Positions 4,485-62,636 of a DNA stretch of 64,000 nt are shown here, in pieces. Origin of the DNA: an uncultured bacterium (lineage in GTDB: Bacteria; Patescibacteriota; Minisyncoccia; Phycocordibacterales; UBA9973). The notes under the pieces were generated by a model that saw only the letters and a list, made by a program, of their open reading frames with translations, made no database searches and was not told the DNA's origin. The position numbers and the translations under genes were made by a program. The stretch is from contig CAIJZZ010000060.1 of the NCBI GenBank assembly GCA_903825255.1, forward strand, positions 5,967-69,966. Reading direction: 5' to 3'. Position 1 is the stretch's first letter, and each line of letters begins with the position of its first letter.

Positions 4485-6380
4485 ATGAAATTCAGTTACA
4501 ATTGGTTGCAAAATTATTTTAAAGAAAAATTACCGAGCCCGGAGGAAGTTGCGGAAGGGATTATTTTTCATTCTTTTGAAGTAGATGAAATAGAAAAAGT
4601 GGGGGATGATACTATTTTTGATATAAAAATCTTACCTGACAGGGCACATGATTGTCTTTCACATTGGGGTGTGGCAAAAGAAATCGGAGCGATTTTTAGT
4701 TTGGAAATTTTTTCACCAAATGGCTTTTTTCAGGTCCTCGGTTCTCCTTCGTCTGCTTCGCAGACTCGGCCAGACCATTCAAAAAGCCATATTGGTTCAG
4801 AATTAGAAATTAAAATTGAAGATAAAAAGTGTTTGCGTTATATGGGGAGAATTGTGAGAAATATTAAGATAGGGGAAAGTCCAGAATGGCTCCAAAAAAA
4901 GTTGAATGCGATAGGGCAAAAATCTATAAATAACATTGTCGATGCGACCAATTTTGTGATGTTTGATTTAGGTCAGCCGATTCATGCTTTTGATTTAGAT
5001 AAATTGGCCAGCGAAAAAATAATAATTAGAAATGGAAAGATGGGAGAAAAGATTACCACTCTTGATAAAAAAAATATTGATTTAGATGAATCAATGCTAG
5101 TAATAACAGATGAAAAAGAACCTTTAGCTATTGCTGGGATTAAGGGTGGAAATAAAGCAGAAGTTGATGTAAATACAAAAAATATAATTATAGAGGTAGC
5201 AAATTTTGAAGCTATTAGTACCCGAAGGACTGCTAAGAAAATAAATATTTTAACTGACGCAGTAAAAAGATATGAAAATGAAATTTCACCAGAACTTTGT
5301 GAAATAGTTATAAAAGCAATAACTGATTTAATTTATAATTTAGCAGGTGGAGAAATAGAAGAAATTGTTGATATTTATCCACAAAAACAAGAGCAAAAAA
5401 ATATTATTATTTCTGTTGATTACATAAATAAAAGACTTGGGACTTCTTTTACAAAAAGTGAAATTGAGAGTGTTTGGAAAAAATTAAATTTTGAATATAT
5501 TGAAAAGCAGGATGAATTTGAAATAAAAATACCATTTTTACGTATTGATCTTATCGGGCCACATGATTTAACAGAGGAAGTTGTTAGAATTTTAGGCTAT
5601 GAAAAAATCGAAGAAAAAATACCAGAAGTAAAATATGAAAAAGAAATTAATAAAAATTATTTTCAGACGCTTTCTGTTCGAGAAAAACTTTTAAATGAAG
5701 GCTATAGTGAAGTGATGACTTATGCTTTTAGGGATAAAGGAGAAGTAGAAGTATTAGCTTCAGCTTCCGATAAAAAGTTTTTAAGAACTAATTTAACTGA
5801 TGGGTTAAAAGAAAGTTTGAAGTTGAATCAGCTCAATTTGCCATTTTTAGAAATGAAGGAAATTAAAATTTTTGAAATTGGGACAATATTCAAAAAAGAC
5901 TCAGAAGAAATACATGTGGCATATGGTGATAAAAAAGAAATAAAAGAAATGAGCCTGGAAGATTTTTGTAAGAACGCCGAGCCTAATGCTTTTGTTACGT
6001 CTGAAGCACCGTATGTCTTTTCTGAATGGTCTGGCCGAGCCAAAGGCGAGGAGGACCGAGGACCTGAAGAAAAGATTTACGGCGCGGAAAATAAATTTAA
6101 AATGTGGTCTGTGTATCCATTTATTTCTCGTGATGTTGCCGTGTGGTTAGGAGAAGGAGAAGACCCAGAAAAATTAAAACAAATTTTAATTAAAAATGGC
6201 ACGGAGCTTTTAGTTAAAGAACCTTATCTTTTTGATTCATTTACTAAAGAAGGGAAAACGTCTTATGCTTTCAGGCTTATTTTCCAATCATATGACAGGA
6301 CTCTCACTGATGAAGAGATAAATCCAATTATGGTAAAAATAAAACAAGAAATAGAGAAAAAAGGTTGGCAAATTCGTTAG
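4485..6380 (+). CDS. pheT: phenylalanine--tRNA ligase beta subunit (631 aa, shortened)
   Basis: MKFSYNWLQNYF start typical of PheT. B3/4 motif DATNFVMFDLGQPIHAFD. C-terminal FISRDVAVWL...SYAFRLIFQS domain. Lies directly after pheS. Contains two GC-rich in-frame insertions (see repeats). Confidence 0.9.
   Translation: MKFSYNWLQNYFKEKLPSPEEVAEGIIFHSFEVDEIEKVGDDTIFDIKILPDRAHDCLSHWGVAKEIGAIFSLEIFSPNGFFQVLGSPSSASQTRPDHSKSHIGSELEIKIEDKKCLRYMGRIVRNIKIGESPEWLQKKLNAIGQKSINNIVDATNFVMFDLGQPIHAFDLDKLASEKIIIRNGKMGEKITTLDKKNIDLDESMLVITDEKEPLAIAGIKGGNKAEVDVNTKNIIIEVANFEAISTRRTAKKINILTDAVKRYENEISPELCEIVIKAITDLIYNLAGGEIEEIVDIYPQKQEQKNIIISVDYINKRLGTSFTKSEIESVWKKLNFEYIEKQDEFEIKIPFLRIDLIGPHDLTEEVVRILGYEKIEEKIPEVKYEKEINKNYFQTLSVREKLLNEGYSEVMTYAFRDKGEVEVLASASDKKFLRTNLTDGLKESLKLNQLNLPFLEMKEIKIFEIGTIFKKDSEEIHVAYGDKKEIKEMSLEDFCKNAEPNAFVTSEAPYVFSEWSGRAKGEEDRGPEEKIYGAENKFKMWSVYPFISRDVAVWLGEGEDPEKLKQILIKNGTELLVKEPYLFDSFTKEGKTSYAFRLIFQSYDRTLTDEEINPIMVKIKQEIEKKGWQIR
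4720..4790. repeat. GC-rich element bounded by inverted repeats (long variant), in frame in pheT, forward orientation
   Basis: Perfect 10-nt terminal inverted repeat ATGGCTTTTT / AAAAAGCCAT. Core contains GGTCCTCGGT ... GTCTGC-TTC-GCAGAC hairpin ... GGCCAGACCA. Encodes FFQVLGSPSSASQTRPDHSK. Confidence 0.7.
6016..6075. repeat. GC-rich element bounded by inverted repeats (long variant), in frame in pheT, reverse orientation
   Basis: Termini TCTTTTCT / AGAAAAGA. Its reverse complement reads CAGGTCCTCGGTCCTCC...CTCGGCCAGACCATTCAG, colinear with the 4720-4790 copy. Encodes SEWSGRAKGEEDRGPEEK. Confidence 0.7.
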
Positions 6381-6400: not shown

Positions 6401-7942
6401 ATGTCCCTCAGACATTTTTTCAAGAAGAATCTTCTGACTATTTTTAGCGTTCTTTTTTTAATTCTTTTCTCCTTTGTCTTAAATGCTTATGCTACACCAC
6501 CGGACTCTCCCTTTACTCCTGGCGAAACTTTAAACCCAGCCTGTGCTCCCACAGATACAAATTGTAAAGTTGGCATAAGTTCTTTTTCTGGTTGGGGGCT
6601 CACTGGGAATTCAGGCACTGACCCAGCTACCAACTTTATCGGTACGACGGATGATGTACCGTTAGTTTTTAAAGAAAATAATAAAATTGTGGGAAAAATA
6701 GATGAAAATTCAGAAAATATATTTTTTGGTCGTACACAAAATACTGGTGGTACGGGTTCTTTTAATTCTGCATTTGGATCTGATGCTCTATATAGTATTA
6801 CTACTGGAATAGGTAATACTGCTATTGGTTCAAAATCTCTTTCGTCTAATACAGAAGGAAATAATAATACTGTCGTTGGATTTGGTTCACTTAATCGAAA
6901 TATTGGTGGTGGTAGAAATATTGCCTTAGGTAATAATGCAGGTTATTATGAAACTGGTTCAGACAATTTATATATTGATAATCAATCGAGGGCTGACGAA
7001 GCAGACGGTCGTCTTAAATCACTTATTTATGGAAAGTTCGGTGTTGATGTGTTAGGCCAATTTGTTAATATTAATGGAGCCTTAGGAATTATTGATTCAA
7101 ATGGCAGTTATTATTCTATATTTAGAGGTGGTTCTCAGTTAGAAGAGATTTCTTACACTTTACCTGTGACGCAAGGCGGAATAAATACTTTTCTAGAAAA
7201 TGATGGTTCGGGAGTTTTAACTTGGGCTTCAGGTGGTACAGTGGCTAATGCTTGGGATATTTCTGGGAATGCAGGCACTATAGATGGTTCCAATTTCATT
7301 GGAACAAAAGATGACGTACCACTAACTTTCAAGGTTAATAATGAATTAGCTGGAAGGATAGATAATACATTAGAAAATATATTTTTGGGCTATCAAGCTG
7401 GAAATTTAAACATTACAGGGTCTTACAATGTTGCTATTGGTACACAAGCTTTTAATATTGATACGACAGGAAGTAATAATGTTGCCATAGGTCAAGAGAC
7501 ACTTTATTATAATACTACAGGTAGTTCTAATGTTGGTGTTGGGGAAGGATCTCTTGGCTCAAATAGCACTGGAGATAATAATGTTGCTATAGGCGAAGGA
7601 ACACTTTTTACAAATACAGGCAGTAATAATGTTGCTTTAGGTGGTTCTGCTGGATATTATGAAACCACTTCAAATAATTTATACATTGATAATCAAGAAA
7701 GAGGTAGTGAAGCAGAGGGGAGACTTAAATCATTAATTTATGGAAAATTTGATGCAGATCCAGCTAATCAGTTTGTGACAATTAATGGAAAATTAAATGT
7801 GAGTAATGGAGATGTATATGTGGAAAATAGTGCGAATGGAATAATTTTAAAGTCAGCAACCGATAATCATTGTGCTCGGGTAACTTTAACCGGAGCTTCT
7901 GGATCAGATGCACTTAATTATGCAGATATCACTTGTCCATAA
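6401..7942 (+). CDS. secreted or anchored repeat protein with internal two-fold duplication (adhesin / tail-fibre-like Gly-Asn repeats)
   Basis: N-terminal hydrophobic signal (LLTIFSVLFLILFSFVLNAYA). Two ~180-aa homologous halves. Each half has NFIGT.DDVPL.FK.NN..G.ID...ENIF.G, then degenerate G..N.A.G repeats, then LYIDNQ.R..EA.GRLKSLIYGKF. Confidence 0.6.
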   Translation: MSLRHFFKKNLLTIFSVLFLILFSFVLNAYATPPDSPFTPGETLNPACAPTDTNCKVGISSFSGWGLTGNSGTDPATNFIGTTDDVPLVFKENNKIVGKIDENSENIFFGRTQNTGGTGSFNSAFGSDALYSITTGIGNTAIGSKSLSSNTEGNNNTVVGFGSLNRNIGGGRNIALGNNAGYYETGSDNLYIDNQSRADEADGRLKSLIYGKFGVDVLGQFVNINGALGIIDSNGSYYSIFRGGSQLEEISYTLPVTQGGINTFLENDGSGVLTWASGGTVANAWDISGNAGTIDGSNFIGTKDDVPLTFKVNNELAGRIDNTLENIFLGYQAGNLNITGSYNVAIGTQAFNIDTTGSNNVAIGQETLYYNTTGSSNVGVGEGSLGSNSTGDNNVAIGEGTLFTNTGSNNVALGGSAGYYETTSNNLYIDNQERGSEAEGRLKSLIYGKFDADPANQFVTINGKLNVSNGDVYVENSANGIILKSATDNHCARVTLTGASGSDALNYADITCP

Positions 7943-10980: not shown

Positions 10981-10991
10981 AAAGTTTAATT

Positions 10992-11017
10992 AAAAAATCC
11001 CTTAACAGGGATTTTTT
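10992..11017. terminator. bidirectional intrinsic terminator between gyrB and thrS
   Basis: AAAAAATCCC-TTAACA-GGGATTTTTT hairpin with A/T tracts on both sides, lying between convergent genes. Confidence 0.7.
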
Positions 11018-11023
11018 AATTGA

Positions 11024-12754
11024 TTATTTTTTCTTTGAGATTTCTTCTTTAAGTTTTAAGATAAAATCTTCTACAGAAATATCTTCGGTTTTGGTGCCGT
11101 CACGGTTTTCAATAGTTAATTTTTGCGAAGCGACTTCTTTGTCTCCTAAGACAATAACAAAAGGAGTTTTCATATCTTTGGCAGCGTGGATACGTTTGCC
11201 GAGACTGTCATTTCCAGAAAACATTTCCACTCGGATAAATTCTTTCTTTAAGGCATTAAAAATTTCTTGGGCTTTTTCTTCGTGGTTTTCACGGACGGGA
11301 ACGATGGCGACTTGGACCGGTGAGAGCCAAGTAGGGAAGGCTCCAGCATAGTGTTCAATCAATATTCCAATAAATCTTTCGAGTGAGCCATAAATGACTC
11401 GATGTATTACGACTGGAGTTTTTCTAGTCCCATCTTTGTCTGTGTATTCAAGTTCAAAGCGTTTAGGTTGTTGGAAGTCTAGTTGCATCGTGCCCATTTG
11501 CCAATCACGACCGAGTGCATCTTTCATGATGATATCTATTTTGGGTCCATAAAAAGCACCGTCGCCTTCTGCCACAGTATATTCTATGCCAGATTTTTCT
11601 AATACATTATGTAGGGCTTTTTCTGCTTTATTCCAACTTTCAATATCTCCTAAAAATCCTTCTGGTCTAGTACCAAGTCTAAATTTATATTCTAAATTAA
11701 AAATTCCATAAAATTCTTTACAGATTTCCATAATTTTATTATATTCGTCTTCAATCATGTCTTCGGTAATGTAATTATGCGAATCATCTTGCTGAAAAGA
11801 TCGACATCGAAGAAGTCCATTTAAGGTACCAGATCTTTCATATCGATGTAAGCGATCAGTATCAGATAAACGTAAAGGTAAGTCTTTATAACTAACTTGC
11901 ATTGATTTAAAAACAATCATAGCGTTTGGGCAATTCATTGGTTTAATACCATAAACTTCATTTTCACCCATATCAGCGATAAACATATCATCTTTATAAT
12001 GATCCCAGTGTCCTGAGGTTTTCCAAAGTTCTGCTTTATTGACTAACGGACTAGAAATTTCTAGGTAACCCAAGTCTCGATGTTTTTCTCGCCAATAGTT
12101 TTCTAATTCTTTATAAATAATTAAACCTTTTGGTAACCAATAAGGCATCCCTGGAGCTGTCTCATGAAACATTAAAAGGCCTAATTCCTTACCGAGTTTT
12201 TTATGATCTCTTTTTTTAGCTTCTTCACGTAGGGCAACATATTTTTCTAGTTCTTCTTTATTTTCAAATGCGAGCCCGTAAATACGAGTGAGCATTTTAT
12301 TTTTTTCATCTCCACGCCAGTAAGCGCCAGCCACTCGATCTAATTTAAAACTGCCATCTGGGATTTCAGCTTTTGGGTTTTCTAAATGTCCACCTCGACA
12401 AAGATCAGTGAATTTTCCACAAGTATAAAAAGTAATTTTTTCACCCTTGCTAATTATTTCATTTATTAATTCATTTTTATATTCGTTATTAGCAAAATAT
12501 TCTTTAGCTTCAGTCTCAGTTACTTCTTTACTTTCAAAAGTTTTCCAACTTTTTAAAATCTCTCGCATTTTCTTTTCAATTTTTGGTAAATCTTTGTCTG
12601 AAATAGGGGAGGCAAATTCAAAGTCATAATAAAAACCATCATCAATCGATGGTCCGATAGTGTTCTTTGTTCCAGGATACATCTCCAATACTGCGGCTGC
12701 CAATAGGTGCGCTAGTGTATGTCTTAAATTATGCAATTTATCATTTGTTTCCAT
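11024..12754 (-). CDS. thrS: threonine--tRNA ligase (576 aa, no TGS domain)
   Basis: Starts at the editing/second additional domain (HTLAHLLAAAV). Class II core (FRLGTRPE, HRVIYGSLERFIGILIEHYAGAFPTWLSPVQV). C-terminal anticodon-binding domain. Confidence 0.93.
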   Translation of the reverse strand: METNDKLHNLRHTLAHLLAAAVLEMYPGTKNTIGPSIDDGFYYDFEFASPISDKDLPKIEKKMREILKSWKTFESKEVTETEAKEYFANNEYKNELINEIISKGEKITFYTCGKFTDLCRGGHLENPKAEIPDGSFKLDRVAGAYWRGDEKNKMLTRIYGLAFENKEELEKYVALREEAKKRDHKKLGKELGLLMFHETAPGMPYWLPKGLIIYKELENYWREKHRDLGYLEISSPLVNKAELWKTSGHWDHYKDDMFIADMGENEVYGIKPMNCPNAMIVFKSMQVSYKDLPLRLSDTDRLHRYERSGTLNGLLRCRSFQQDDSHNYITEDMIEDEYNKIMEICKEFYGIFNLEYKFRLGTRPEGFLGDIESWNKAEKALHNVLEKSGIEYTVAEGDGAFYGPKIDIIMKDALGRDWQMGTMQLDFQQPKRFELEYTDKDGTRKTPVVIHRVIYGSLERFIGILIEHYAGAFPTWLSPVQVAIVPVRENHEEKAQEIFNALKKEFIRVEMFSGNDSLGKRIHAAKDMKTPFVIVLGDKEVASQKLTIENRDGTKTEDISVEDFILKLKEEISKKK

Positions 12755-21508: not shown

Positions 21509-21745
21509 AATTAAAATATATTACGAGTTAGAGTGAGGAGTGTTATAACCGTATATTTCAAATTCTTCAGTTTCTTTTCTATAAACAGGATATTCTTTAG
21601 GATTCTTTGCAAGAAACTCTAAAAGTTTGGTTTGTAGGTTTTCTCCTGTTTAAAGGTATAAAGCAAATACATTAAAACAATAAATTAGGATAATATTTAG
21701 TGATTATTTTTGCTAAAAAAAGTACTAACTAGTATAATTAAACCA

Positions 21746-24511
21746 ATGGAAGGATCAATTTTTAAAGAAATGCCAAAGTTTAAGACTCCGGCGGAAGAGC
21801 TCGATTTTTTGCGTGCGCATGTGGCTAAACGTGAACAAGAATTAATTGATAGTGGTACTTTTGAACACGAGGCAAATAGTAATGCCGTCCAGGAAGTAAT
21901 TGGAAAATATAAACAAGTTCCCCTAAAAGAAGCAATTCATAAAGATAATCTCTTAAAAGAAAAAGATACTGAGAATATTGTGCTTAAATTAAAGCCAGAA
22001 TCTCATGATACAGTAATGGAAGAGCTTTTAGGTTTGGTTATAACCAAAGGAGTTCGAAATGCACTTTCTGTGGCCGAGGCGATGAATAATCCCCATATAG
22101 ATGATGATCTTCAACGTTTACTTGTGCAATATTTTAAAACTGGAAACATTAAAGATGTAAAAGAAGGGACCCCTCTTTATAAATCTTTAGACATGACTCT
22201 TTTTGAAATAACTTTACCACCGCCTGGAGATGAGGCTGAAAAACAAAAAGGTTTTAAAGAGTTTATTACAGCGATGGAGCAGTTCTATGCAGGGATGCTA
22301 TCTATCGCCGAAGATAGATATAATAAAAAAGAGAATTATTTTACCTTAGAAGTAGCGCTTAGTAATAACACGGATCAGGTGGTAGTATATGCAGCTGTTC
22401 CAAATAAATATATTTCACTTTTTGAAAAACAAGTCTTAGCCTTTTATCATGATGCAAAGGTTCATGAAGTTTCAGATGATTATAATATTTTTAACGAGAC
22501 GGGTGTTTCAGTAGGGGCCTATGCTCTGCTTTCTGAACGAGCTGTTTTACCCATTAAGACTTATGAAAATATTGAACATGATCCGATGTATCCAATACTG
22601 AATGTATTTTCAAAGTTAAAAACCGAAGGTGAAGGTGCGGCTATTCAATTAGTTATCGCTCCGGCTGGTAGTAAATTTATTGAAGAATTTCATATGATTT
22701 TAGACGAAGTTAAAGATGGAACTTCAGTTAAACATGCTTCAGATAATTTTTATAAATTACATAAAGCTTTTCTGCATGCCTCTAAAGATATATTTTTTGG
22801 ACATAAGAAAAAAGATGAAAATAAAGAGAAACATATGGCTGGTCGTCGATCGGTGGACGAGGGGGCAGTAGAAAAAATTGGTAATAAAGTAAAAAGTACT
22901 ATTGTAAAAACAAATATTCGAGTTATTGCTTCGGCAGAAAATAAAGAAAGAGCAGATGCCATACTCAAAGAAATAGAATCTTCTTTTAATCAGTTTTCAG
23001 AAGCAGCTAGTAATAGTGTTGTTTTCAATAAACTTACTGGTGGTGATTTGAAAAAATTATTTCATGATTTTTCTTATCGAAGTTTTTCTGATGATAGAAT
23101 CATGCCTTTGAATTTAAAAGAGCTTTCTTCCGTTTTTCATTTTCCAATTGGTGTTTCATCTCAACCACAACTCAAAGAAGCTAAAGCTGGGATGGCACCA
23201 GCGCCTATTGAAATGGGTAAAGAAGGCATTCTCTTGGGTATTAATAGTTATAGAGGGAGAGATACGGAAGTTAGAATGTCTAAAGAAGATCGTATGCGCC
23301 ATATGTATGTTATTGGTCAGACGGGTACTGGTAAGACGACTATTTTGAAAAATATGATTGCGCAAGATATTCGAAATGGTGAAGGCTGTTGTTTTATTGA
23401 TCCACACGGTAGTGATATTCAAGAAATATTATCTTATGTGCCAAAGGAACGTATTGATGATGTAATTTATTTTGATCCAGCATATACTGCTCGTCCGATG
23501 GGTTTAAATATGCTTGAGTTTGATCCTCGTTATCCGGAACAGAAAACTTTTGTAGTGAATGAATTAATGGGAATTTTTAATAAGCTTTTCGATATGAAGA
23601 CTTCTGGTGGTCCGATGTTTGAACAATATTTTAAAAATAGTGCATTCCTTATTATGGAAGATCCAGAATCAGGTTGTACACTACTAGAAATTTCTCGAGT
23701 ACTCGCGGATAAAGAATTTCGAGATATGAAATTAGCGAAGTGTAAAAATCCAATTATTAAACAATTTTGGGTAGGGGCAGAACAAACAACAGGGGAACAA
23801 TCCTTAGCAAATTTTGTACCTTATATTACTTCTAAATTTGATAATTTTATTTCCAATGACATTATGCGTCCAGTGGTGCTTCAAGAAAAATCAGTTTTTA
23901 ATTTTCGTAAGATTATGGATGAGAAAAAGATTTTACTAGTGAATCTTTCAAAAGGTAGATTAGGAGATATTAATGCGAATCTGATTGGTCTCGTGCTTGT
24001 GGGTAAAATTCAAATGGCAGCGCTTTCTCGGGTGGATATGTTTGGTAAACAGATGAATGATTTTTATTTATATATAGATGAATTTCAAAATGTTACGACA
24101 GATTCAATCGCTTCGATTTTATCAGAGGCTCGTAAATATCGTCTATCTTTGACTATTGCGCATCAGTATATTTCTCAATTAGAAGAGAATATTAAAAATG
24201 CTGTTTTCGGTAACGTCGGTTCGATGGCTGTGTATCGAGTGAGCTCCGAGGATGCGACCTTTGTGGAGTCTAGATTTAAGCCTACTTTCACCGCATCAGA
24301 TATCATGAAATTAGATAATTTTAATTCATACGTGAGTATGCTCGTAAACGGTACACCGACGAAGCCATTTAGTATGACTTCGCATTGGAGTCTATTACCG
24401 AAAGGAAATGTGGATATGGTAGAAGATTTAAAACAACTTTCTTACTTAAAATATGGCCGTGATCGTGCGGAGATTGAGGCTGAAATTATGGCTAAATACG
24501 AGAGGCAATAA
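21746..24511 (+). CDS. soluble VirD4/TraD/TraG-like (FtsK-HerA superfamily) P-loop ATPase with a large unknown N-terminal domain
   Basis: ORF track starts at TTG 21710; ATG at 21746 preferred. Walker A VIGQTGTGKTT, IDPHG, Walker B LYIDEFQN, SEARKYRLSLTIAHQY. No TM helices seen. The N-terminal ~510 aa have no recognised motif. Confidence 0.7.
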   Translation: MEGSIFKEMPKFKTPAEELDFLRAHVAKREQELIDSGTFEHEANSNAVQEVIGKYKQVPLKEAIHKDNLLKEKDTENIVLKLKPESHDTVMEELLGLVITKGVRNALSVAEAMNNPHIDDDLQRLLVQYFKTGNIKDVKEGTPLYKSLDMTLFEITLPPPGDEAEKQKGFKEFITAMEQFYAGMLSIAEDRYNKKENYFTLEVALSNNTDQVVVYAAVPNKYISLFEKQVLAFYHDAKVHEVSDDYNIFNETGVSVGAYALLSERAVLPIKTYENIEHDPMYPILNVFSKLKTEGEGAAIQLVIAPAGSKFIEEFHMILDEVKDGTSVKHASDNFYKLHKAFLHASKDIFFGHKKKDENKEKHMAGRRSVDEGAVEKIGNKVKSTIVKTNIRVIASAENKERADAILKEIESSFNQFSEAASNSVVFNKLTGGDLKKLFHDFSYRSFSDDRIMPLNLKELSSVFHFPIGVSSQPQLKEAKAGMAPAPIEMGKEGILLGINSYRGRDTEVRMSKEDRMRHMYVIGQTGTGKTTILKNMIAQDIRNGEGCCFIDPHGSDIQEILSYVPKERIDDVIYFDPAYTARPMGLNMLEFDPRYPEQKTFVVNELMGIFNKLFDMKTSGGPMFEQYFKNSAFLIMEDPESGCTLLEISRVLADKEFRDMKLAKCKNPIIKQFWVGAEQTTGEQSLANFVPYITSKFDNFISNDIMRPVVLQEKSVFNFRKIMDEKKILLVNLSKGRLGDINANLIGLVLVGKIQMAALSRVDMFGKQMNDFYLYIDEFQNVTTDSIASILSEARKYRLSLTIAHQYISQLEENIKNAVFGNVGSMAVYRVSSEDATFVESRFKPTFTASDIMKLDNFNSYVSMLVNGTPTKPFSMTSHWSLLPKGNVDMVEDLKQLSYLKYGRDRAEIEAEIMAKYERQ

Positions 24512-25166: not shown

Positions 25167-25751
25167 ATGAAACATCCAAAAGAAGAACAAACATATGTCA
25201 TGATTAAACCAGACGGTGTTCGAAAAGGTTTAACTGGCGAAATTATTAAGCGTTTTGAACAACGTGATTTAAAGATAGTCGCACTTGAAATGTTCCAACC
25301 AGGACATGAGCAACTAGACAATCATTATCCTAAAAACGAAGAATGGATTACTAGACTAGGCCACAAAACTCTCACTACTTATGAGAAATATGGTTATGAC
25401 GCGATGCTGGATTTCGGAACGATTGATCCTGTGGTAATTGGTCCAGAAATTAGAAAATGGCTTATTGATTATATGAAAACCGCTCCACTTGTAAAAATGA
25501 TAGTACAAGGCGTGCATGCAGTAGATGTAGTACGTAAAATTGCTGGCCCAACGATGCCATATTTAGCTGAAGTAGGTACAATTCGCGGAGATTTTTCAAT
25601 CGATTCACCCGCACTAGCCAATAAAGAAAAACGCGCAGTAATGAATATTATTCATTGTTCAGAAACTCCTGAAGAAGCAGCTCATGAAATCAAGCATTGG
25701 TTTGGTGATGTAAAAGTTTGTGACTATAAACGTTTTGGTGTTGATGAGTAA
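25167..25751 (+). CDS. ndk: nucleoside-diphosphate kinase-like protein with ~45-aa insertion
   Basis: YVMIKPDGV, IIKRFE, GTIRGDF, NIIHCSE (His retained; Cys replaces the usual Gly). 194 aa versus ~140-150 typical. Confidence 0.75.
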   Translation: MKHPKEEQTYVMIKPDGVRKGLTGEIIKRFEQRDLKIVALEMFQPGHEQLDNHYPKNEEWITRLGHKTLTTYEKYGYDAMLDFGTIDPVVIGPEIRKWLIDYMKTAPLVKMIVQGVHAVDVVRKIAGPTMPYLAEVGTIRGDFSIDSPALANKEKRAVMNIIHCSETPEEAAHEIKHWFGDVKVCDYKRFGVDE

Positions 25752-30213: not shown

Positions 30214-30930
30214 ATGCGTTTTCATATTATTACAATTTTTCCAGACATCTTTGATTCATATTTAAATGAGTCTATTCTTGGGCGGGCGATAAAAGAAAAG
30301 CATGTTTCTGTTAAATTTTATAATCCACGGGATTACGTAAAAGCCCAAAATAAGAACAATTACAAACCCGTAGATGATCGGCCTTATGGCGGAGGCCCTG
30401 GGATGGTGATGCGACCAGAACCTATCTTGAAAGCAGTAGAAAAGGCTATTTCGACGATTAGCAAAATTTCTTCGGGTCCTCGGTCTGGGGCCAGACCAGC
30501 TCAGAAATTTTCTAATCGTCTCAATAAAAATAAAATTCAAATTATTAATTTTATTCCAAGTGCTGAGAAGTTTACAACCATTGAGGCAAAAAAAATTTCT
30601 AAAAAATATACCGATATTATTTTAATTTGTGGAAGATATGAAGGGATAGATGCACGAGTAGATAAAATTTTAAAAACTAAAAAATATTCTATCGGAGATT
30701 ATGTTTTGACAGGTGGGGAATTACCGGCGATGGTATTGATTGATTGTATTGCCCGTCAAATTCCTGGGGTACTCGGCAAATATGAATCTCTAGAAGAAGA
30801 GCGGGTATCTTCTAGTGAAGTTTACACTCGTCCTGAAATACTTAAATATAATAATAAAAATTATAGAGTTCCGAAAGTCTTACTCTCTGGAAATCATGCA
30901 GAAGTAGAAAAATGGAAGAAAACTCATTAA
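30214..30930 (+). CDS. trmD: tRNA (guanine37-N1)-methyltransferase
   Basis: PYGGGPGMVM, ICGRYEGIDARV, IGDYVLTGGELPAMVLID, LLSGNHAEVEKWK. Carries an in-frame 49-bp repeat element. Confidence 0.93.
   Translation: MRFHIITIFPDIFDSYLNESILGRAIKEKHVSVKFYNPRDYVKAQNKNNYKPVDDRPYGGGPGMVMRPEPILKAVEKAISTISKISSGPRSGARPAQKFSNRLNKNKIQIINFIPSAEKFTTIEAKKISKKYTDIILICGRYEGIDARVDKILKTKKYSIGDYVLTGGELPAMVLIDCIARQIPGVLGKYESLEEERVSSSEVYTRPEILKYNNKNYRVPKVLLSGNHAEVEKWKKTH
30463..30511. repeat. 49-bp GC-rich palindromic mini-element, in frame in trmD
   Basis: Perfect 9-nt terminal inverted repeat AAAATTTCT / AGAAATTTT. Core GGGTCCTCGGTCTGG-GG-CCAGACCAGC. 43/49 identical to the reverse complement of 62241-62289. Confidence 0.8.
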
Positions 30931-42076: not shown

Positions 42077-42090
42077 CTTTAGTTAAATTA

Positions 42091-42115
42091 AAAAATCCCC
42101 GTTAGGGGATTTTTT
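42091..42115. terminator. bidirectional intrinsic terminator between rpoD and the DsbA-like gene
   Basis: AAAAATCCCC-GTTA-GGGGATTTTT. Confidence 0.75.
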
Positions 42116-42131
42116 AATAATTATTTAATTT

Positions 42132-44697: not shown

Positions 44698-45373
44698 TTG
44701 GAAAAGATATGTAATAGTTTTTTTTATAACTCTCGGTTTGTTTTTAACAGCTATTTATTTAAGTGATTATTTTAGCAATAAAAAATTAGATCAATTAAAG
44801 ACGATTCAAGATAATATTTCTGTAGATATTCTTTCTTCAGAAACTCAGTTTTCACTTTTATCTGAACTTTCTTGTAAAAATGTTTCCGATTCAGTCCTTT
44901 CTTCTGAATTAGCTGACTTAGGACATAAACTCGAGTGGGGACAAAATGGAAACGTTGGTACGACGGAGGAGTTGTCTTATTTAAAAAAATATTATTCCTT
45001 ACTAGAAATTAAAGATTATATTTTAATGAAAAAAATATCAGCTCGTTGTAATAAAAAATCAGCTTTTATTCTTTATTTTTATACTACTGCTCAAAATTGT
45101 AGTGAATGTGAAAAGGAGGGAATAGTGCTTTCAACTTTGCGTGATAAATATCCAGAACTCAGGGTTTATTCTTTCGATTACAGTATTGATCTTTCAGCAG
45201 TGAAAGCGATGCTTAATATCTATAAAATCAAAGATACTGCTTTACCAGCTTTAGTCATAGATGATAATGTTTTAACAGGCTTCCATTCTATTGATGAGCT
45301 TGATTCTCGTGTAAGCGATTCTTTTAAACTTCAAAAGCCATTACCAGCATCAGTAAAAAAAATTATTAATTAA
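44681..45373 (+). CDS. hypothetical membrane-anchored protein with CxxC (possible thioredoxin-like)
   Basis: ATG at 44681 (MQQQFDWKRYVIVFF), overlapping the GT2 gene end by 17 nt. TM helix. CSECEKEG motif. Confidence 0.5.
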   Translation: MQQQFDWKRYVIVFFITLGLFLTAIYLSDYFSNKKLDQLKTIQDNISVDILSSETQFSLLSELSCKNVSDSVLSSELADLGHKLEWGQNGNVGTTEELSYLKKYYSLLEIKDYILMKKISARCNKKSAFILYFYTTAQNCSECEKEGIVLSTLRDKYPELRVYSFDYSIDLSAVKAMLNIYKIKDTALPALVIDDNVLTGFHSIDELDSRVSDSFKLQKPLPASVKKIIN

Positions 45374-45376
45374 ATT

Positions 45377-45402
45377 AAAAAGCCTCAATTTTGAGGCTTT
45401 TT
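45377..45402. terminator. bidirectional intrinsic terminator
   Basis: AAAAAGCCTCAA-TT-TTGAGGCTTTTT, lying between a + strand CDS and the - strand tRNA. Confidence 0.7.
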
Positions 45403-45410
45403 AATTATTT

Positions 45411-45486
45411 TGGAGCCGCCTCTCAGATTCGAACTGAGGACCTTCGCTTTACAAAAGCGTTGCTCTACCAACTGAGCTAAGGCGGC
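45411..45486 (-). tRNA. tRNA-Thr (anticodon UGU), CCA encoded
   Basis: Reverse complement reads GCCGCCT-TA-GCTC-AGTTGGTA-GAGC-A-ACGCT-TTTGTAA-AGCGA-AGGTC-CTCAG-TTCGAAT-CTGAG-AGGCGGC-TCCA. Full cloverleaf with a 7-bp acceptor stem and anticodon TGT. Confidence 0.93.
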
Positions 45487-51190: not shown

Positions 51191-54100
51191 ATGGGGGATA
51201 TTTTACCAAAAAAAACAATAGATCAAAAAGAAGGACTTATTCCTGAAAATATTGAGGTGAATGATAGTGTAAACAAGGAGAATAAGATTATAGAAAATTC
51301 AGAAAATTCAGAAAATTCAGAAAAAATTCTTGAAAAAATTGAGCCTCTTTTAGTTGAAGTAGATCAAATAAACTCTGAAATTGAAGAAAAAAGTGACGGC
51401 CTTTTGGAAAGTATAAAAAATCCTATTTTAGTTGAGAAAGAAAATAGTATTTTAGGAGAGCTTTATCAAAAAGGTGAAAATTTTCTCAAATTAATATCTA
51501 GGCAATTAGCAAGCTATCCTAAAGGAGTTGCAGAGTCTTTCAAAGATAAATATATAAGTAAAAAATCTAATCGTTTATATAATCGTCTTTATAGTAACAA
51601 AGCGATAAGTGAATATACAAATTCACATTCTCGAAAAGAAGAAGCGATCCGTTCTTTTGATTATATATATAAAAGTTCTTTACCACTTTTGAATACTATT
51701 GAGAATGGTTTTTGGGGAAATTCCAAAAATAAGTCTGAAACTATTTCATATGTAAATTCTTCATTATCAATAATTAGCAGACAAGGTATTTCACTAGAAA
51801 AGTATGATGAAGTTTTTAATATTCTTAAGATTTATGAAAACAGCCGAACACTATCTGATGAAAATAAAAATCAACAGAATACCTTTTCAAATATTACTAC
51901 AGAGCTAAGTAAGCATTTATATAGCAAAGAAAACGCTACTGAAGCTGATGAAATTTCTAAAGTATGTAGAAATGATCCATATTTAATTATTGATTATTTA
52001 AAAAATAATTATATTGATGAAAATAAACTTAATCAACAAAAAAATTCAAATTTTTTAGAAGAGCAAGTGGATAAAATAATCGAAGAACATACTGAAAATA
52101 GTCACTGCAATCAGTTTGTTTTAAGTTCTTTTGAAAAAGTTTTAAAAGCGAATCCTGAAAAATATGGATTGGATATTAAAAATAGGGAATTTATTTTTGA
52201 AAATTTTAAAATTGATAATTTTGAAAATTCCTCTAGTAATTATTTAATAAATAATAGTCCCTTTTTTAAAAGGGAGCTTGATAATTTAACAGAAGAAGAT
52301 CTTGATAAATTAATAGGATCTTATACTAGTTATGGTATAAAAGAGGGAAAAGTGCAACTTTTATTATCTTCTACGAATCTACAAGAAAAAGATTTTAAAA
52401 ATATTTTTAATAAAGTTAAAGGTTTTTCTGAAGAAGAAAATGATTATTCAAAAGAAAAATTACTAGAATTATTTAAAAATAACCCAATAATACCATTTTT
52501 AAAATATAAAGAATTTAACTTAAAAACAGAAGACCGAATTGATTTTTTTGAAAAAATTATGGGATTTATGGATAATCCTTTTTTATTTTTAACAAAAATT
52601 CTTTCTGAATTTAACCTCCTTTCTAAGGAAATTCCCGAAGAAAAGTTTGATGAGCTTTTTCAAAAACTTCTTGAAAAATCAATGACTGGCGAAATTAAAG
52701 AAATTAGAGCATTACATGCCTTACTCCCAGCATACGATGTTCCTGCTAAATATAAAGAAATGATTAATAAAGCCTTTTCAGAAGAATATTCTGAAGGAGG
52801 CGGTGCCACTAGAATTAGTAGGATTTTTAGTGAAGAAAATAATTCTCTACAACTTTCTAAGCAGGAAAAATGGCTCAAAGGCAATGCCGTGCTTGCGCCC
52901 AATTTAGAAATTGGGTTTTATAATTCTGGTGACATGAATACTCTTAGGCACTTTTTTTTCGATGTGATAGAAGGAAAAAGACAATCTATAGATAAGGATT
53001 TGCTAATTAAAAAATATGCCGAAAGAATTTACCAAGTTGAGCCAGAAGAAATCATTGATCTTTTTATTATTAGGAAAAAGCTTCCCATGTCTTATTTAGA
53101 TGCATTTTCTGCTAAAATCCAGGATCATGATACAGAAAAGTTGTTTTTACAGTTAGAGGACTGTCTTCGCTTGAATCAAATATCTCAAGCAGAATATAAA
53201 AAAGTATTAATTAGCTTAATAAATAATGCCTATTATGTCGTTGCTGAAAAGTCGCTGGATCGTTCCAAAGAAATTCTTAATCAAGATGAAATAAAAGAGT
53301 TATCTTTAGGTTTTATAAAAAATATAGTCAAACAAGTTGCAAATAAGGATAATTACAGTCGTCCTGATGCTAATAGTCTTCGTAGAATTATTGAATCAAA
53401 ATTTTATGATTCACCTACTATAACTCAAGAAGACAAAAAAATTTTTACCAACAAGCTCTTTGAGGAACTTATTAGCTATAAAAATTTAAATAATGAAATA
53501 TTAGAAATAGTTGATCAAAATAAGGATTTATTTAAAACAGCCTTTGACGATGATAAAAAGAGAGATGATTTTGTCGGTAAATTATTAACAAGCAATGATC
53601 ATCGAGCAATTAGTAATTTGATTGATAGTTATTTATCTGAAATTAAAACTGAAAAAGAATTTAAAAATCCAATTAATCTATCAATCGATGAAGAAAAATT
53701 CAAATCATTATTTAAACACGGTTTATCTTTAGATGATTTAGAAATAGACAATGCTTTAATTGTTAATTTTAAAGCTCTTTCTAAGGAAGAACAAGGGATT
53801 GTAATAAAAAATTTATTGGCTAAGGAAGATATCTTAAGAAATTCTAATGGAGATACAATACGAAATTTTTGTTCTAATATGGTTAATGTTACCCAAAACG
53901 ATAAAATAAATGAAGGAGAAAATAGGATTATCTCAGAAAATGATGCCCAAAATATTTTTTCTAAAATATTTTTTAATAAATCCATAAATCCACAAGTCTT
54001 TAATGATTTAATTTATCATAAGAAAGGATTTTTGACTGAGAATAAAAATATTTTAAATGAATATATTTCAGCTATTGAATTAAAAGGGAGTAGTAATAAT

Positions 54101-56434
54101 TGTTTATCAGCTTTAGAAGAACTAAAATCTACGGAAAAACCAGTTCTTTCAGTGGAGCAAGTAAAGAGTCTTTCTATCGAATTACTAAAAAATAGAAACT
54201 TAGATAAGAATCTTTATCAAATGTATCTAGATTCAACTCCAGATAATTTACAGTTTTATTTAGATCAGGAAATTTTTGATCAAAACATATATAGTATAAG
54301 TATCAACGGCAATGATATGACTACCTCTATTCTTGATTTTTTGGAATTAGAAAAAAAAGTTAAAAATGAAGGTAAGAATGTTATTACTTTAAATGAAAGT
54401 CAAGAAGAGTCGATTGTAGAAAAAATATTAAATTATAATGGAATAAATAGTTCAAATTTTGAAAAACTTTATGATATTGATCAAGAATTATTTTCTGATT
54501 CATTAAAAAATGCATTAAATAAACAAAAAATAGGTGAAGATCCGCTTATGAGTCTTATTAATACCAAAGAAGAAATTTCAAAAGTTTTTGCTTCTGAAAT
54601 CATCGCATATTATTTTAATTATAGAAATAATCGAAAAAATGTATTTGATTTAATTTGTGATAAATATTCATATAGTCCCGAGTTCTTGAAAAAAATAAAG
54701 GAGTATGTTAATAATTTAGGAAACAAAGTAGATCGTTCAGTTTTTAAATCAAAACTTTTACAGAAAGACTTACTTTCTGGAGAAGAACTCAAGGCTTTTT
54801 ATGAAGAAATACGCTCCGAACCGGATTTACAATCCCAAGTGCTTCTTTCAGCTGAAGTGTTGGGTTCCTTGTCTTATACTGGTGACAAAGAAAAAATAGA
54901 TAAAATTTTTGGACCAGAAGAAGTAGAAACTAAAAAAAATCTAGAATTTATTTCTTCTTTTGTTAAAAAATATCCTTTACAAAACAAAGGTAGGACTATT
55001 GCTGTAATGCTTTTTTCTAAAGAATATTTACCTGACAGAAGTATTGGAGAAATAGTAGAAAAAGTGGCTGGTAGACTTTCTAAATATGAAAGAGTTTTAG
55101 AACAATATCAATATAAAGGTATTCCAGCTGGCTTAAAAGCTTCTGTAGGCCTTGAATATGAGATTACCCACTCAACAGCAAATGGTTATAAGGAGTTAAC
55201 TAATCGTGATTTAAAAACAGATATTGTGAGACTAAGTGAAGCAGCTCATATAGGCAATGGAGCAGATGCTGTGCATGAAATAGCTACTCGACCTACTGAT
55301 GAACCATATTTACTTTTCTTAGAAATGCAATTGTTAAATGATTTGGAATATATTGATTTGAATTTTGAACGCTCACCCGAATATCAAAAAGGGGCTAGGG
55401 GCTATCATTTGACTATTGGCGGAGAAACGGGTCTTTCTGTAAATGCAAATACTAATTTTCTTCAGAATTCTATTTTAAGTGCTGGTTGGGGCGGAATATA
55501 TGCTGGTGAAGTCGGCAAAAGGGTTTCTGGTGGACGAGGAGTGACTTTAAGAGGTAGAAGTCCAAATGACGGTCACAATGTTAAGGTTTTTGATAATCCA
55601 ACTTATTCGGTTGAATTAAGGTCTTTATCTATTGATAAAATAGAACCACTACAGCGAGCTATTTCAACTGCTTATAATGGAGCTATCGCTATTCAAGCCT
55701 TAGAAAAATATACAGATTGTTCTTCTGATACGATTAATGATTTTTATGAATCAAATTCTGTAAAAAGTAGTGAAAAGGAATTTATGGAAAAACTTAAAGA
55801 ATCTTCTAAATTAAAAGATGGTTATGATTCTGATCCAAAAAATATAAAAATTATTTATGCTTGGGCAGAGTTAGTGGCTGAAACTAAAGAGGCACTCGAA
55901 TATCATAATAATGAATTTTTAACTGGAGAAACACTCGGCTATTTAAAAAAAGATGGGGTATGGGTAGACTCCGAAGATTTCGGAGGAAATTATAATAGAA
56001 AACGTTTTGACTCTGTAGTTTCTTCAATTGATTCGACTTTATCAGTAGAAGAATATGTAAATTCAACTAAAATTGATTTTAATAAATTATTTTCTAGTTT
56101 TGATGTGGATCTAGCTGATAGTTTAACAAAGGTAAATAATTTATATTTAAAACCCGGTAGTAGAGAATCTGGCGATGAAAAAAATAAGAAAGTAAAATTA
56201 AGTGGTGACCAAGCAAATACAATCTCAATGTTGGAAGTTACAAAGTTTAATAATGAAAATCTTGAACATCGAGATGAGGCTGCCTATCTCAAGGGTACCG
56301 TATTTGATACTTTAGGTGAACGTCGAGAAGGATATTATTATGTTCAAGGGGGAAGTGAAAAAATGATTACCCATGCTTGTCAGATAGCTCTTTTGAATTT
56401 TAATAAAAAAATGGAAGAAATTTTAAAGAATTAA
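51191..56434 (+). CDS. giant hypothetical protein (1747 aa) with C-terminal glutamine-synthetase-like amidoligase signature
   Basis: Uninterrupted 5.2-kb ORF. About 1300 aa of Asn/Lys/Glu/Ile-rich, mostly helical-looking sequence. Residues ~1310-1500 contain VGLEYEI...GADAVHEIATRP...RGYHLTIGG...SVELRSL. Confidence 0.6.
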   Translation: MGDILPKKTIDQKEGLIPENIEVNDSVNKENKIIENSENSENSEKILEKIEPLLVEVDQINSEIEEKSDGLLESIKNPILVEKENSILGELYQKGENFLKLISRQLASYPKGVAESFKDKYISKKSNRLYNRLYSNKAISEYTNSHSRKEEAIRSFDYIYKSSLPLLNTIENGFWGNSKNKSETISYVNSSLSIISRQGISLEKYDEVFNILKIYENSRTLSDENKNQQNTFSNITTELSKHLYSKENATEADEISKVCRNDPYLIIDYLKNNYIDENKLNQQKNSNFLEEQVDKIIEEHTENSHCNQFVLSSFEKVLKANPEKYGLDIKNREFIFENFKIDNFENSSSNYLINNSPFFKRELDNLTEEDLDKLIGSYTSYGIKEGKVQLLLSSTNLQEKDFKNIFNKVKGFSEEENDYSKEKLLELFKNNPIIPFLKYKEFNLKTEDRIDFFEKIMGFMDNPFLFLTKILSEFNLLSKEIPEEKFDELFQKLLEKSMTGEIKEIRALHALLPAYDVPAKYKEMINKAFSEEYSEGGGATRISRIFSEENNSLQLSKQEKWLKGNAVLAPNLEIGFYNSGDMNTLRHFFFDVIEGKRQSIDKDLLIKKYAERIYQVEPEEIIDLFIIRKKLPMSYLDAFSAKIQDHDTEKLFLQLEDCLRLNQISQAEYKKVLISLINNAYYVVAEKSLDRSKEILNQDEIKELSLGFIKNIVKQVANKDNYSRPDANSLRRIIESKFYDSPTITQEDKKIFTNKLFEELISYKNLNNEILEIVDQNKDLFKTAFDDDKKRDDFVGKLLTSNDHRAISNLIDSYLSEIKTEKEFKNPINLSIDEEKFKSLFKHGLSLDDLEIDNALIVNFKALSKEEQGIVIKNLLAKEDILRNSNGDTIRNFCSNMVNVTQNDKINEGENRIISENDAQNIFSKIFFNKSINPQVFNDLIYHKKGFLTENKNILNEYISAIELKGSSNNCLSALEELKSTEKPVLSVEQVKSLSIELLKNRNLDKNLYQMYLDSTPDNLQFYLDQEIFDQNIYSISINGNDMTTSILDFLELEKKVKNEGKNVITLNESQEESIVEKILNYNGINSSNFEKLYDIDQELFSDSLKNALNKQKIGEDPLMSLINTKEEISKVFASEIIAYYFNYRNNRKNVFDLICDKYSYSPEFLKKIKEYVNNLGNKVDRSVFKSKLLQKDLLSGEELKAFYEEIRSEPDLQSQVLLSAEVLGSLSYTGDKEKIDKIFGPEEVETKKNLEFISSFVKKYPLQNKGRTIAVMLFSKEYLPDRSIGEIVEKVAGRLSKYERVLEQYQYKGIPAGLKASVGLEYEITHSTANGYKELTNRDLKTDIVRLSEAAHIGNGADAVHEIATRPTDEPYLLFLEMQLLNDLEYIDLNFERSPEYQKGARGYHLTIGGETGLSVNANTNFLQNSILSAGWGGIYAGEVGKRVSGGRGVTLRGRSPNDGHNVKVFDNPTYSVELRSLSIDKIEPLQRAISTAYNGAIAIQALEKYTDCSSDTINDFYESNSVKSSEKEFMEKLKESSKLKDGYDSDPKNIKIIYAWAELVAETKEALEYHNNEFLTGETLGYLKKDGVWVDSEDFGGNYNRKRFDSVVSSIDSTLSVEEYVNSTKIDFNKLFSSFDVDLADSLTKVNNLYLKPGSRESGDEKNKKVKLSGDQANTISMLEVTKFNNENLEHRDEAAYLKGTVFDTLGERREGYYYVQGGSEKMITHACQIALLNFNKKMEEILKN
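51293..51329. repeat. in-frame 9-bp tandem repeat (GAAAATTCA)x3 plus a degenerate 4th unit
   Basis: Encodes ENSENSENSEK near the N-terminus of the giant ORF. Confidence 0.8.
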
Positions 56435-62212: not shown

Positions 62213-62240
62213 AATTAATAAAAATAAAAAACAAAAATAT

Positions 62241-62289
62241 AAAATTTTCAAGCTGGTCTGGCTCCAGACCGAGGACCCGAGAAAATTTT
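62241..62289. repeat. 49-bp GC-rich palindromic mini-element, intergenic copy (reverse orientation relative to the trmD copy)
   Basis: Perfect terminal inverted repeat AAAATTTTC / GAAAATTTT. Core CTGGTCTGG-CT-CCAGACCGAGGACCC. 43/49 identical to the reverse complement of 30463-30511. Followed by a T-rich run. Confidence 0.8.
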
Positions 62290-62335
62290 ATATTTTTTTA
62301 ATTGCTTTTTTAATATTTTGTTTTATAATCAAATT

Positions 62336-62626
62336 AGCCTTATATTGGATAACTGCTCCGCTTACAGCGGGGAGGAAAGTCCGAACACACAGTCTTGACG
62401 TAAGTCTAGACAAACGTAGCGGGTAATGCCCGTCGGGAGCAATCCTAGAGTTGCGAACAGTGACGAACCGATTTAGTTCGGGTGAAACGGCAAAATACTT
62501 ACGCGTGTGCAAGATCGTGTCCTGATGTAAATCAGGAAGAATCGCTTGAGCCTGTGAGTAATTACAGGCCTAGATAAATAGTTGTCACCCTTCGGGGTAC
62601 AGAATTCGGCTTATAGATATAAGGCT
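62336..62626 (+). ncRNA. rnpB: RNase P RNA (bacterial type A, compact)
   Basis: P4 halves GGGGAGGAAAGTCCGAACAC and ACAGAATTCGGCTTAT. GCTTGAGCC...GGCCTAGATAAAT block. P1 pairing AGCCTTATAT (62336-45) with ATATAAGGCT (62617-26). ORF 62288..62512 (-) is therefore spurious. Confidence 0.93.
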
Positions 62627-62636
62627 AAAAAATGAA

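Follow-up and report, generated by a model that had tools for sequence, protein, structure and literature searches.

A hairpin element inside pheT

The window analysed here, a stretch of 64,000 nucleotides (64 kb) with a GC content of about 32%, carries the phenylalanyl-tRNA synthetase gene pheT at positions 4485-6380 of the forward strand. The gene codes for a protein of 631 aa, in which Pfam recognises the B3_4, B5, core and FDX-ACB domains but no B2 domain, and since the relatives of this protein are Paceibacterota/Nomurabacteria proteins, the window derives from a Patescibacterium. Embedded in frame in pheT is a hairpin of 80 nt (4716-4795, +; hereafter copy A), whose arms and core together encode P78-G104. 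Comparison with its orthologues shows that copy A is an insertion relative to most PheT proteins.

Copy A was first noticed in an inspection of the letters alone (the sequence-only reading), which reported a perfect 10-nt inverted repeat, ATGGCTTTTT (4720-4729) and AAAAAGCCAT (4781-4790), two core decamers, GGTCCTCGGT (4733-4742) and GGCCAGACCA (4768-4777), and an internal hairpin, GTCTGC-TTC-GCAGAC (4751-4765). All of these are present at those positions. The inverted repeat is perfect over the 10 nt reported, and its actual extent is longer, the left arm CCAAATGGCTTTTT (4716-4729, +) pairing with the right arm AAAAAGCCATATTGG (4781-4795, +) with one bulged A in the latter. The T-run of the left arm is conserved in the family, and CCAAATGGC of the same arm is site-specific, being found also in the orthologous copy of locus L250; the outer inverted repeat (ATGGC/GCCAT and beyond) is copy-specific rather than family-wide. 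Between the arms lies the family core, TCA-GGTCCTCGGTTCTCC-(inner hairpin)-GGCCAGACC-ATTC (4730-4780, +), in which the inner hairpin (+), flanked by a TC/TC internal loop, is the position that varies and covaries among family members. The peptide read here in the pheT frame (+), SPNGFFQVLGSPSSASQTRPDHSKSHIG, is Pro/Ser/Arg-rich and foreign to its protein, as had been proposed.

Both the number of decamers and the folding of the region exceed chance. Allowing at most one mismatch, the window contains 6 occurrences of one decamer and 7 of the other, where 0.49 and 0.74 are expected; no shuffle matched these counts. The 87 nt at 4712-4798 fold with an energy of -30.7 kcal/mol (z = -6.25, 0 of 200 shuffles as low), and their complement folds at -36.1 kcal/mol. 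The covariance model R1 matched copy A at 4719-4790 with 70.8 bits (E = 1.5e-16).

An alignment of PheT orthologues, run as a test of the insertion, revealed no conservation of the segment at the protein level: 97 of 120 orthologues are without the insert and have a conserved 19-aa segment, DLKIKEKNYKIFEPKPTKL, where the PheT of the window has 36 aa. The closest relative (P0003, 72% identical, at the syntenic locus L249) has no insert at either of the two sites that are filled in the window (site 1 with copy A, site 2 with copy B, described below). Structural modelling, which had been suggested as a further check, placed the copy A insert in a low-confidence linker of the AlphaFold model, and the two longest segments with a predicted local distance difference test score (pLDDT) <50, residues 62-105 and 500-540, are exactly the two PheT inserts; the model indicates that the linker holding copy A is likely disordered. 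In an alignment with a solved PheT structure (2rhs_B), the insert stands opposite a gap, in the linker preceding the B3 domain. The PheT of the window and its 120 closest relatives measure about 590-630 aa and are without the B2 (tRNA-binding OB) domain, and residue 41 of the window protein aligns with residue 160 of a solved 800-aa PheT.

Copies, linkers and arms of the family

The sequence-only reading had assigned copy A to a repeat family, an assignment supported by the recurrence of the same core at three further places in the window; a covariance model derived from family members recognises these four and no others there. Copy B (6010-6081, -) stands in the opposite orientation, in frame in pheT directly ahead of the FDX-ACB domain, encodes VFSEWSGRAKGEEDRGPEEKIY and is matched by R1 at 6014-6078 (74.9 bits). 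Copy C (30461-30512, +), a short form of about 49 nt, lies in frame in trmD and encodes KISSGPRSGARPAQKF; the same trmD site in L239 holds the long form of the element. Copy D (62240-62291, -) is also short and is intergenic, between the ribonucleotide reductase and RNase P RNA genes. Around copy D, positions 62206-62324 form a looser palindrome with about 75% complementarity over a further 44 nt on each side, and on the + strand its AT-rich stem is followed by a T-run. It might therefore serve in addition as terminator of the ribonucleotide reductase gene, lying 46 nt ahead of the RNase P RNA gene.

The family covariance model found no copy in 17 kb of the syntenic locus L249. It found four in 22 kb of L250, at pheT site 1, in SMC, in LigA and in the thrS-rpmF spacer, which are only partly the same sites as those of the window. 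Copies in the lineage of the window are shortened and diverged. At pheT site 2, L250 holds a different small hairpin, GGTGGA..TCCACC (region 11500-11620 of L250). Copy A had been described as a longer variant of a 49-bp element; the kinship of the two stands, and the description needs refinement in that the long form is the usual one of the family. On sequence grounds, copy A is a normal long member, and the 49-nt elements are reduced, derived forms.

Searching for the shared core beyond pheT by pattern scans, we recovered more than 110 further copies in genome and metagenome contigs of low-GC Patescibacteria, in addition to the four of the window. The scan of metagenome contigs gave at least 120 loci, and all copy counts below are among the matches listed. 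The pattern used for genome contigs was loose and mostly produced chance matches in high-GC genomes; the informative matches were five low-GC loci, copies in Patescibacteria contigs labelled Saccharibacteria, Nomurabacteria or uncultured. A scan of viral contigs yielded only chance matches, one of which was a tRNA T-arm. The covariance model yielded few copies that the pattern had not ascertained (5 extra in 713 kb).

The family core reads TTTTTcTCA-GGTCCTCGGTTCTCC-(covarying inner hairpin)-GGCCAGACC-ATTCrAAAAA and is enclosed by arms of about 27 nt. Going inward and out again, a copy consists of a copy-specific closing stem, cTTTTTcTCA, GGTCCTCGGTTCTCC, the inner hairpin, GGCCAGACC, ATTCrAAAAAg and the complement of the stem. 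The inner hairpin varies with clear covariation (CCGGG/CCCGG, GCG/CGC vs GTG/CAC, GCCCT/AGGGC, GTCTGC/GCAGAC and others), and a TC/TC internal loop often adjoins it. The search pattern required GGTCCTCGGTTCTCC and CCAGACC to match exactly, and copies found by the model vary there. In Rfam, the elements have no match, either at gathering score in the window or at E <= 1 in L026, L047, L074, L075 and L114. The string GGTCCTCGGTTC..GCCAGACCA is similar to a tRNA T-arm plus the 3' acceptor/CCA end (window 45414-45486, -; L244 8756-8787), a phage tRNA was among the matches of the search pattern, and GGTCCTCAGT is present in the tRNA of the window itself. The core could conceivably derive from a tRNA, although the CTCGG repeat of the element is direct rather than inverted.

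About two-thirds of the copies lie inside open reading frames (ORFs) and about one-third between genes. Long open frames contain approximately 74 of the 118 distinct copies (52 in sense and 22 in antisense orientation), and the genic copies, whichever their orientation, are all stop-free and in frame. Under a stricter test, 70 copies run on without interruption, to the left and to the right, into ORFs of at least 60 codons, and none breaks the frame; the 17 copies that appeared 'split' proved on inspection to be genuine spacers between a stop codon and the next start. Depending on phase and orientation, the element encodes unrelated peptides (FSQVLGSPGP..GQTIRKS, SGPRFSG..RPDHSKN, NGLAGVGDPENRGPEK or ..RTEDL, and further FSQVLGSPGPYPGQTIR), and because the peptides differ in this way, its conservation is at the level of DNA rather than protein. 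Judging from these frames, the copies look translated and selected only against frame breakage.

The same linkers are filled across many species, including two UvrD/PcrA sites, KsgA, the zinc-finger loop of LigA, PheT site 2, TrmD and others. Among 118 KsgA orthologues, the site holds a sense copy in 40 and an antisense copy in 18, is empty (15-21 aa) in 32, and carries decayed forms, some of them of 37 aa, or other insert families in 28. Sense and antisense forms at this site are mostly equal in length (41 aa), which suggests inversion in place. On a weak tree built from this 245-column protein, the states require 52 parsimony changes, as compared with a mean of 63 for permuted states, and the site therefore turns over rapidly. 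We show that permissive linkers have been repeatedly filled, emptied and flipped in different lineages. Unrelated GC-rich insert families occur at the same PheT and KsgA linkers (P0002-P0240), with peptides such as HGYFSAEKFLVLAPSRSQG, ERTLGRSDGDGQRKFSAENFRGES, VLKSIAQAGEPSIANFQQKIMCGF and DPLLISPLAGGE, as well as GGPARNATHSVAGG (P0013) and KGSNPSTPLRV; in-frame repeats of several families seem to pervade Patescibacterial proteins.

Per side, the median length of the complementary arms is 27.5 nt; total hairpin length peaks at 78 and 93 nt, and 93 nt is also its median. The two arms of one copy form a duplex of -26 kcal/mol, as against -9 kcal/mol for arms combined from different copies, and the gap persists when only the distal parts are considered. 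In the alignment, many arm pairs are preserved through changes on both sides. Two copies per contig with identical cores and unrelated arms are present in L137 and in L157. Orthologous copies share arms that covary at many positions, as seen in LigA (L148, L158, L219, L075, L250 and L194), in KsgA, and at pheT site 1 between the window and L250. Certain arm types recur at non-orthologous sites, and the arms of non-coding copies are somewhat longer and cleaner.

Mismatches within the arms are distributed unequally between the strands. On the GGTCCTCGG (GGTCC) strand they are mostly A·C (74, vs 18 G·T), so that it is the strand complementary to GGTCCTCGG that keeps G·T wobble pairs. The asymmetry persists in the distal arms after removal of near-duplicates (A·C 37 vs G·T 10, p = 1e-4), regardless of gene orientation, and in copies A and B the complement strand folds better by 5-7 kcal/mol. 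These observations point to a relevant structure that is strand-specific and that, in most genic copies, is not on the mRNA strand. A hairpin acting in the mRNA was rejected, since it is the antisense strand that carries the G·U-compatible mismatches when a copy is sense-oriented. A role of the element itself as an intrinsic terminator was also rejected: whichever strand is read, the T-run comes ahead of the stem and the A-run after it.

Explanations for the element and other features of the window

We favour, with a probability of about 0.6, the reading that copy A is a non-autonomous selfish hairpin DNA element, belonging to a family spread across Patescibacteria and translated and tolerated in linkers. 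Such an element would move or persist in single-stranded form, with the strand complementary to GGTCCTCGG folded into a hairpin, and a structure-specific enzyme supplied in trans would recognise its core and stem; by analogy, our guess is an enzyme of the HUH/Y1 type. Strand-specific recognition is predicted for the GGTCTGGCC...GGAGAACCGAGGACC strand. Selection would purge insertions that break the frame or fall in structured regions, leaving in-frame linker copies as the only survivors. Intrastrand template switching, which is documented for hairpins in general (PMC8794818, PMC5453318), would keep the arms complementary and flip the core, and it is the probable cause of both the flips in orientation and the way the arms behave. 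The distal arms may be partly made in place from the host flank.

Several points weigh against this selfish-element reading. The evidence conflicts on whether the arms move with the element: arms travelling with it are favoured by the discrete total lengths of 78 and 93 nt, by the enrichment of lengths that are multiples of three (34 of 68 coding copies) and by similar arms at unrelated sites, and arms made from the host flank are favoured by the modest net gain in length (KsgA about 60-69 nt, pheT site 1 51 nt, SMC about 30 nt) and by left-arm residues that align with host residues. A mobile unit defined by the stem itself, with a stem able to grow in place, can reconcile the two. We detected no target-site duplication longer than 2-3 nt, those of that size being slightly above the control, and no transposase, reverse transcriptase or HUH gene in the 64-kb window, where only housekeeping genes were found. 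A filled/empty allele pair at high identity, sought via PheT and KsgA homologues and the contigs of P0002 and P0003, was not found; the closest relatives are only 72-74% identical, for which reason the exact insertion boundaries are unreadable, and transposition is therefore putative. The core is partly fixed by the search pattern, and its apparent invariance is inflated. Finally, the inner hairpin, which the pattern does not fix, is identical in the KsgA copies of L137, L154, L173 and L229, despite diverged neighbouring codons and saturated synonymous sites; this counts against a decaying selfish element, since such an element would not show identical inner hairpins.

The identity of these inner hairpins across several species also fits the main rival reading, which we consider rather unlikely and in which the core is a functional, strand-specific signal under selection that acts on single-stranded DNA or in an antisense transcript. 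A conserved Patescibacterial protein would read it, for example in priming, recombination or DNA uptake, and the placement in linkers would arise only because a compact genome tolerates the element there. The sameness of the core in Saccharibacteria- and Nomurabacteria-labelled contigs, the arm complementarity that survives numerous double changes at orthologous sites in LigA and KsgA, and a strand asymmetry of arm mismatches that is independent of gene orientation are all in line with such a signal. However, many orthologues have no copy or have the decayed 37-aa forms, the copies in the lineage of the window are shortened and diverged, few non-ascertained copies were found (5 extra in 713 kb), no Rfam family matches, and the presence of unrelated insert families at the same sites fits permissiveness better than function. 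Equally doubtful is a version of this reading that takes in the arms, where a single-stranded DNA or antisense-RNA signal of conserved Patescibacterial machinery would be kept in essential genes by selection or biased conversion, with the stem being an inverted copy of the flank. If true, such inverted flank copying would constitute an 'inverted target duplication' mode of insertion or maintenance, unlike any described transposon.

Three other readings are contradicted by the data. A motif or linker of the host protein, kept by selection on the protein, would account for copies being always in frame and for the recurrence of FSQVLGSPGP..GQTIRKS in many proteins, but there are at least five combinations of orientation and phase in which the same DNA is read, with unrelated peptides as the outcome (QVLGSP.., GPRFSG.., NGLAGVG..RGPE), about one-third of the copies are intergenic, the region is modelled at low confidence and most orthologues do not have it, so that we regard a motif as very improbable. 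GC-rich hairpins in the coding regions of an AT-rich compact genome, together with a copy-specific closing helix, could instead indicate an element that is removed or skipped, either as a mini-intron with a flank helix or through ribosome bypass like that of byp elements in Magnusiomyces mitochondria. A frame-neutral element of this kind would break the frame or carry stops in about two-thirds of the genic copies, whereas 70 continuous and 0 disruptive copies were seen; with G·U-compatible pairing on the antisense strand in the majority, sense-oriented copies, removal or bypass is barely tenable. Local template switching during replication, alone and with no mobile element, can create and maintain perfect stems (PMC8794818), yet it cannot account for one shared core of about 60 nt that recurs in different genes of a single genome and at over 100 unrelated sites, and we give it next to no chance as the sole cause.

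The window contains further features apart from the element. Directly after pheT, an ORF of 513 aa without a Pfam match (6401-7942, +) holds diverged 51-nt (17-aa) tandem repeats, Asn/Gly/Thr-rich, in blocks at 6798-6954 and 7410-7665, and another ORF, of 1747 aa (51191-56434, +), has no Pfam match at E <= 1e-4. A terminator-like hairpin family, AAAAAATCCC..GGGATTTTTT, is located at gene ends (10981-11024, 42079-42122 and 45366-45409) and is unrelated to the pheT element. The nucleoside diphosphate kinase (25167-25751, +; 194 aa) matches Pfam in two separate stretches, a split that suggests an insertion different in kind from the pheT element; it is no GC island. Among the housekeeping genes is also one for a 933-aa protein with weak TrwB/TraG-type coupling-protein domains (21710-24511, +). 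The RNase P RNA (bacterial class A; 62337-62629, +) is a reduced version, with 293 nt vs a 367-position model.

Comparison with known systems

The closest analogue of the family is the Rickettsia palindromic elements (RPE). According to the account of Ogata et al. 2000 given in PMC10969869, RPE are short palindromic repeats of a small AT-rich genome, often in frame in housekeeping genes, and they add a peptide without destroying the protein and occur between genes as well. The Patescibacteria family resembles them in its stable hairpin-forming palindrome (z = -6.25), in its dispersed copies and in the in-frame position of many of these in unrelated protein genes. RPE are about 100-150 bp long and conserved in sequence over the whole length, whereas only the core of about 60 nt is conserved in the Patescibacteria family, the outer 10-20 nt of each arm being copy-specific. 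The family further differs from RPE in its phylum, in the occurrence of both orientations and several phases at one site, and in its strand-asymmetric arm mismatches. Shared descent with RPE-1 to RPE-10 is unlikely, the host being a Patescibacterium; the comparison made here is one of descriptions.

Miniature inverted-repeat transposable elements (Correia/NEMIS, ERIC, BOX) are likewise small, non-coding and dispersed, with terminal inverted repeats and occasional in-frame fusions, but the Patescibacteria element is without clear target-site duplication and its arms vary between copies. No autonomous insertion sequence related to the ends of the element was found in the 64-kb window. Repetitive extragenic palindromes (REP) and bacterial interspersed mosaic elements with their REP-associated tyrosine transposases (RAYT), and palindromes derived from IS200/IS605, share with it a one-strand hairpin, conserved unpaired bases beside the stem and an absence of target duplications (PMC3733652). 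REPs, however, are extragenic, measure 20-40 nt and bear a GTAG or CGTC tag, whereas the Patescibacteria element measures 78-93 nt and is mostly intragenic. The consensus of alignment A2 contains neither tag on either strand, and the element therefore falls outside the definition of a REP; no RAYT or TnpA gene was seen in the 64-kb window.

Fungal mitochondria harbour GC clusters, double-hairpin elements and byp elements, which are GC-rich mobile hairpins in AT-rich compact genomes, including their coding regions. Byp elements, which are bypassed, are under no need to preserve the frame; every genic Patescibacteria copy, by contrast, keeps it. In plastids, hairpin loops between short inverted repeats invert recurrently. 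Hairpins shaped by template switching resemble the family in that their stems are kept perfect by multi-base 'compensatory' events (PMC8794818, PMC5453318). The template-switch and plastid cases are mutational processes with no dispersed family sharing a core, and are invoked here only for the arms and flips. In the literature searched, a limited library, no description of such elements in Patescibacteria was found, which is absence of evidence.

Patescibacteria have tiny genomes under strong reductive pressure, yet their essential genes, coding an aminoacyl-tRNA synthetase, DNA ligase, a helicase, and rRNA and tRNA methyltransferases, repeatedly bear a hairpin repeat that looks translated. 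The element accounts for some of the unusual variation in length, and some of the low-complexity inserts, seen in Patescibacterial proteins, features that affect alignments, phylogenies and structure prediction. Its conserved core with copy-specific arms, its strand asymmetry and its in-place flips provide handles on how short hairpin elements, RPE included, move and are maintained. As selfish DNA, the family would represent a second, independent case of such DNA inside protein genes, after that of Rickettsia.

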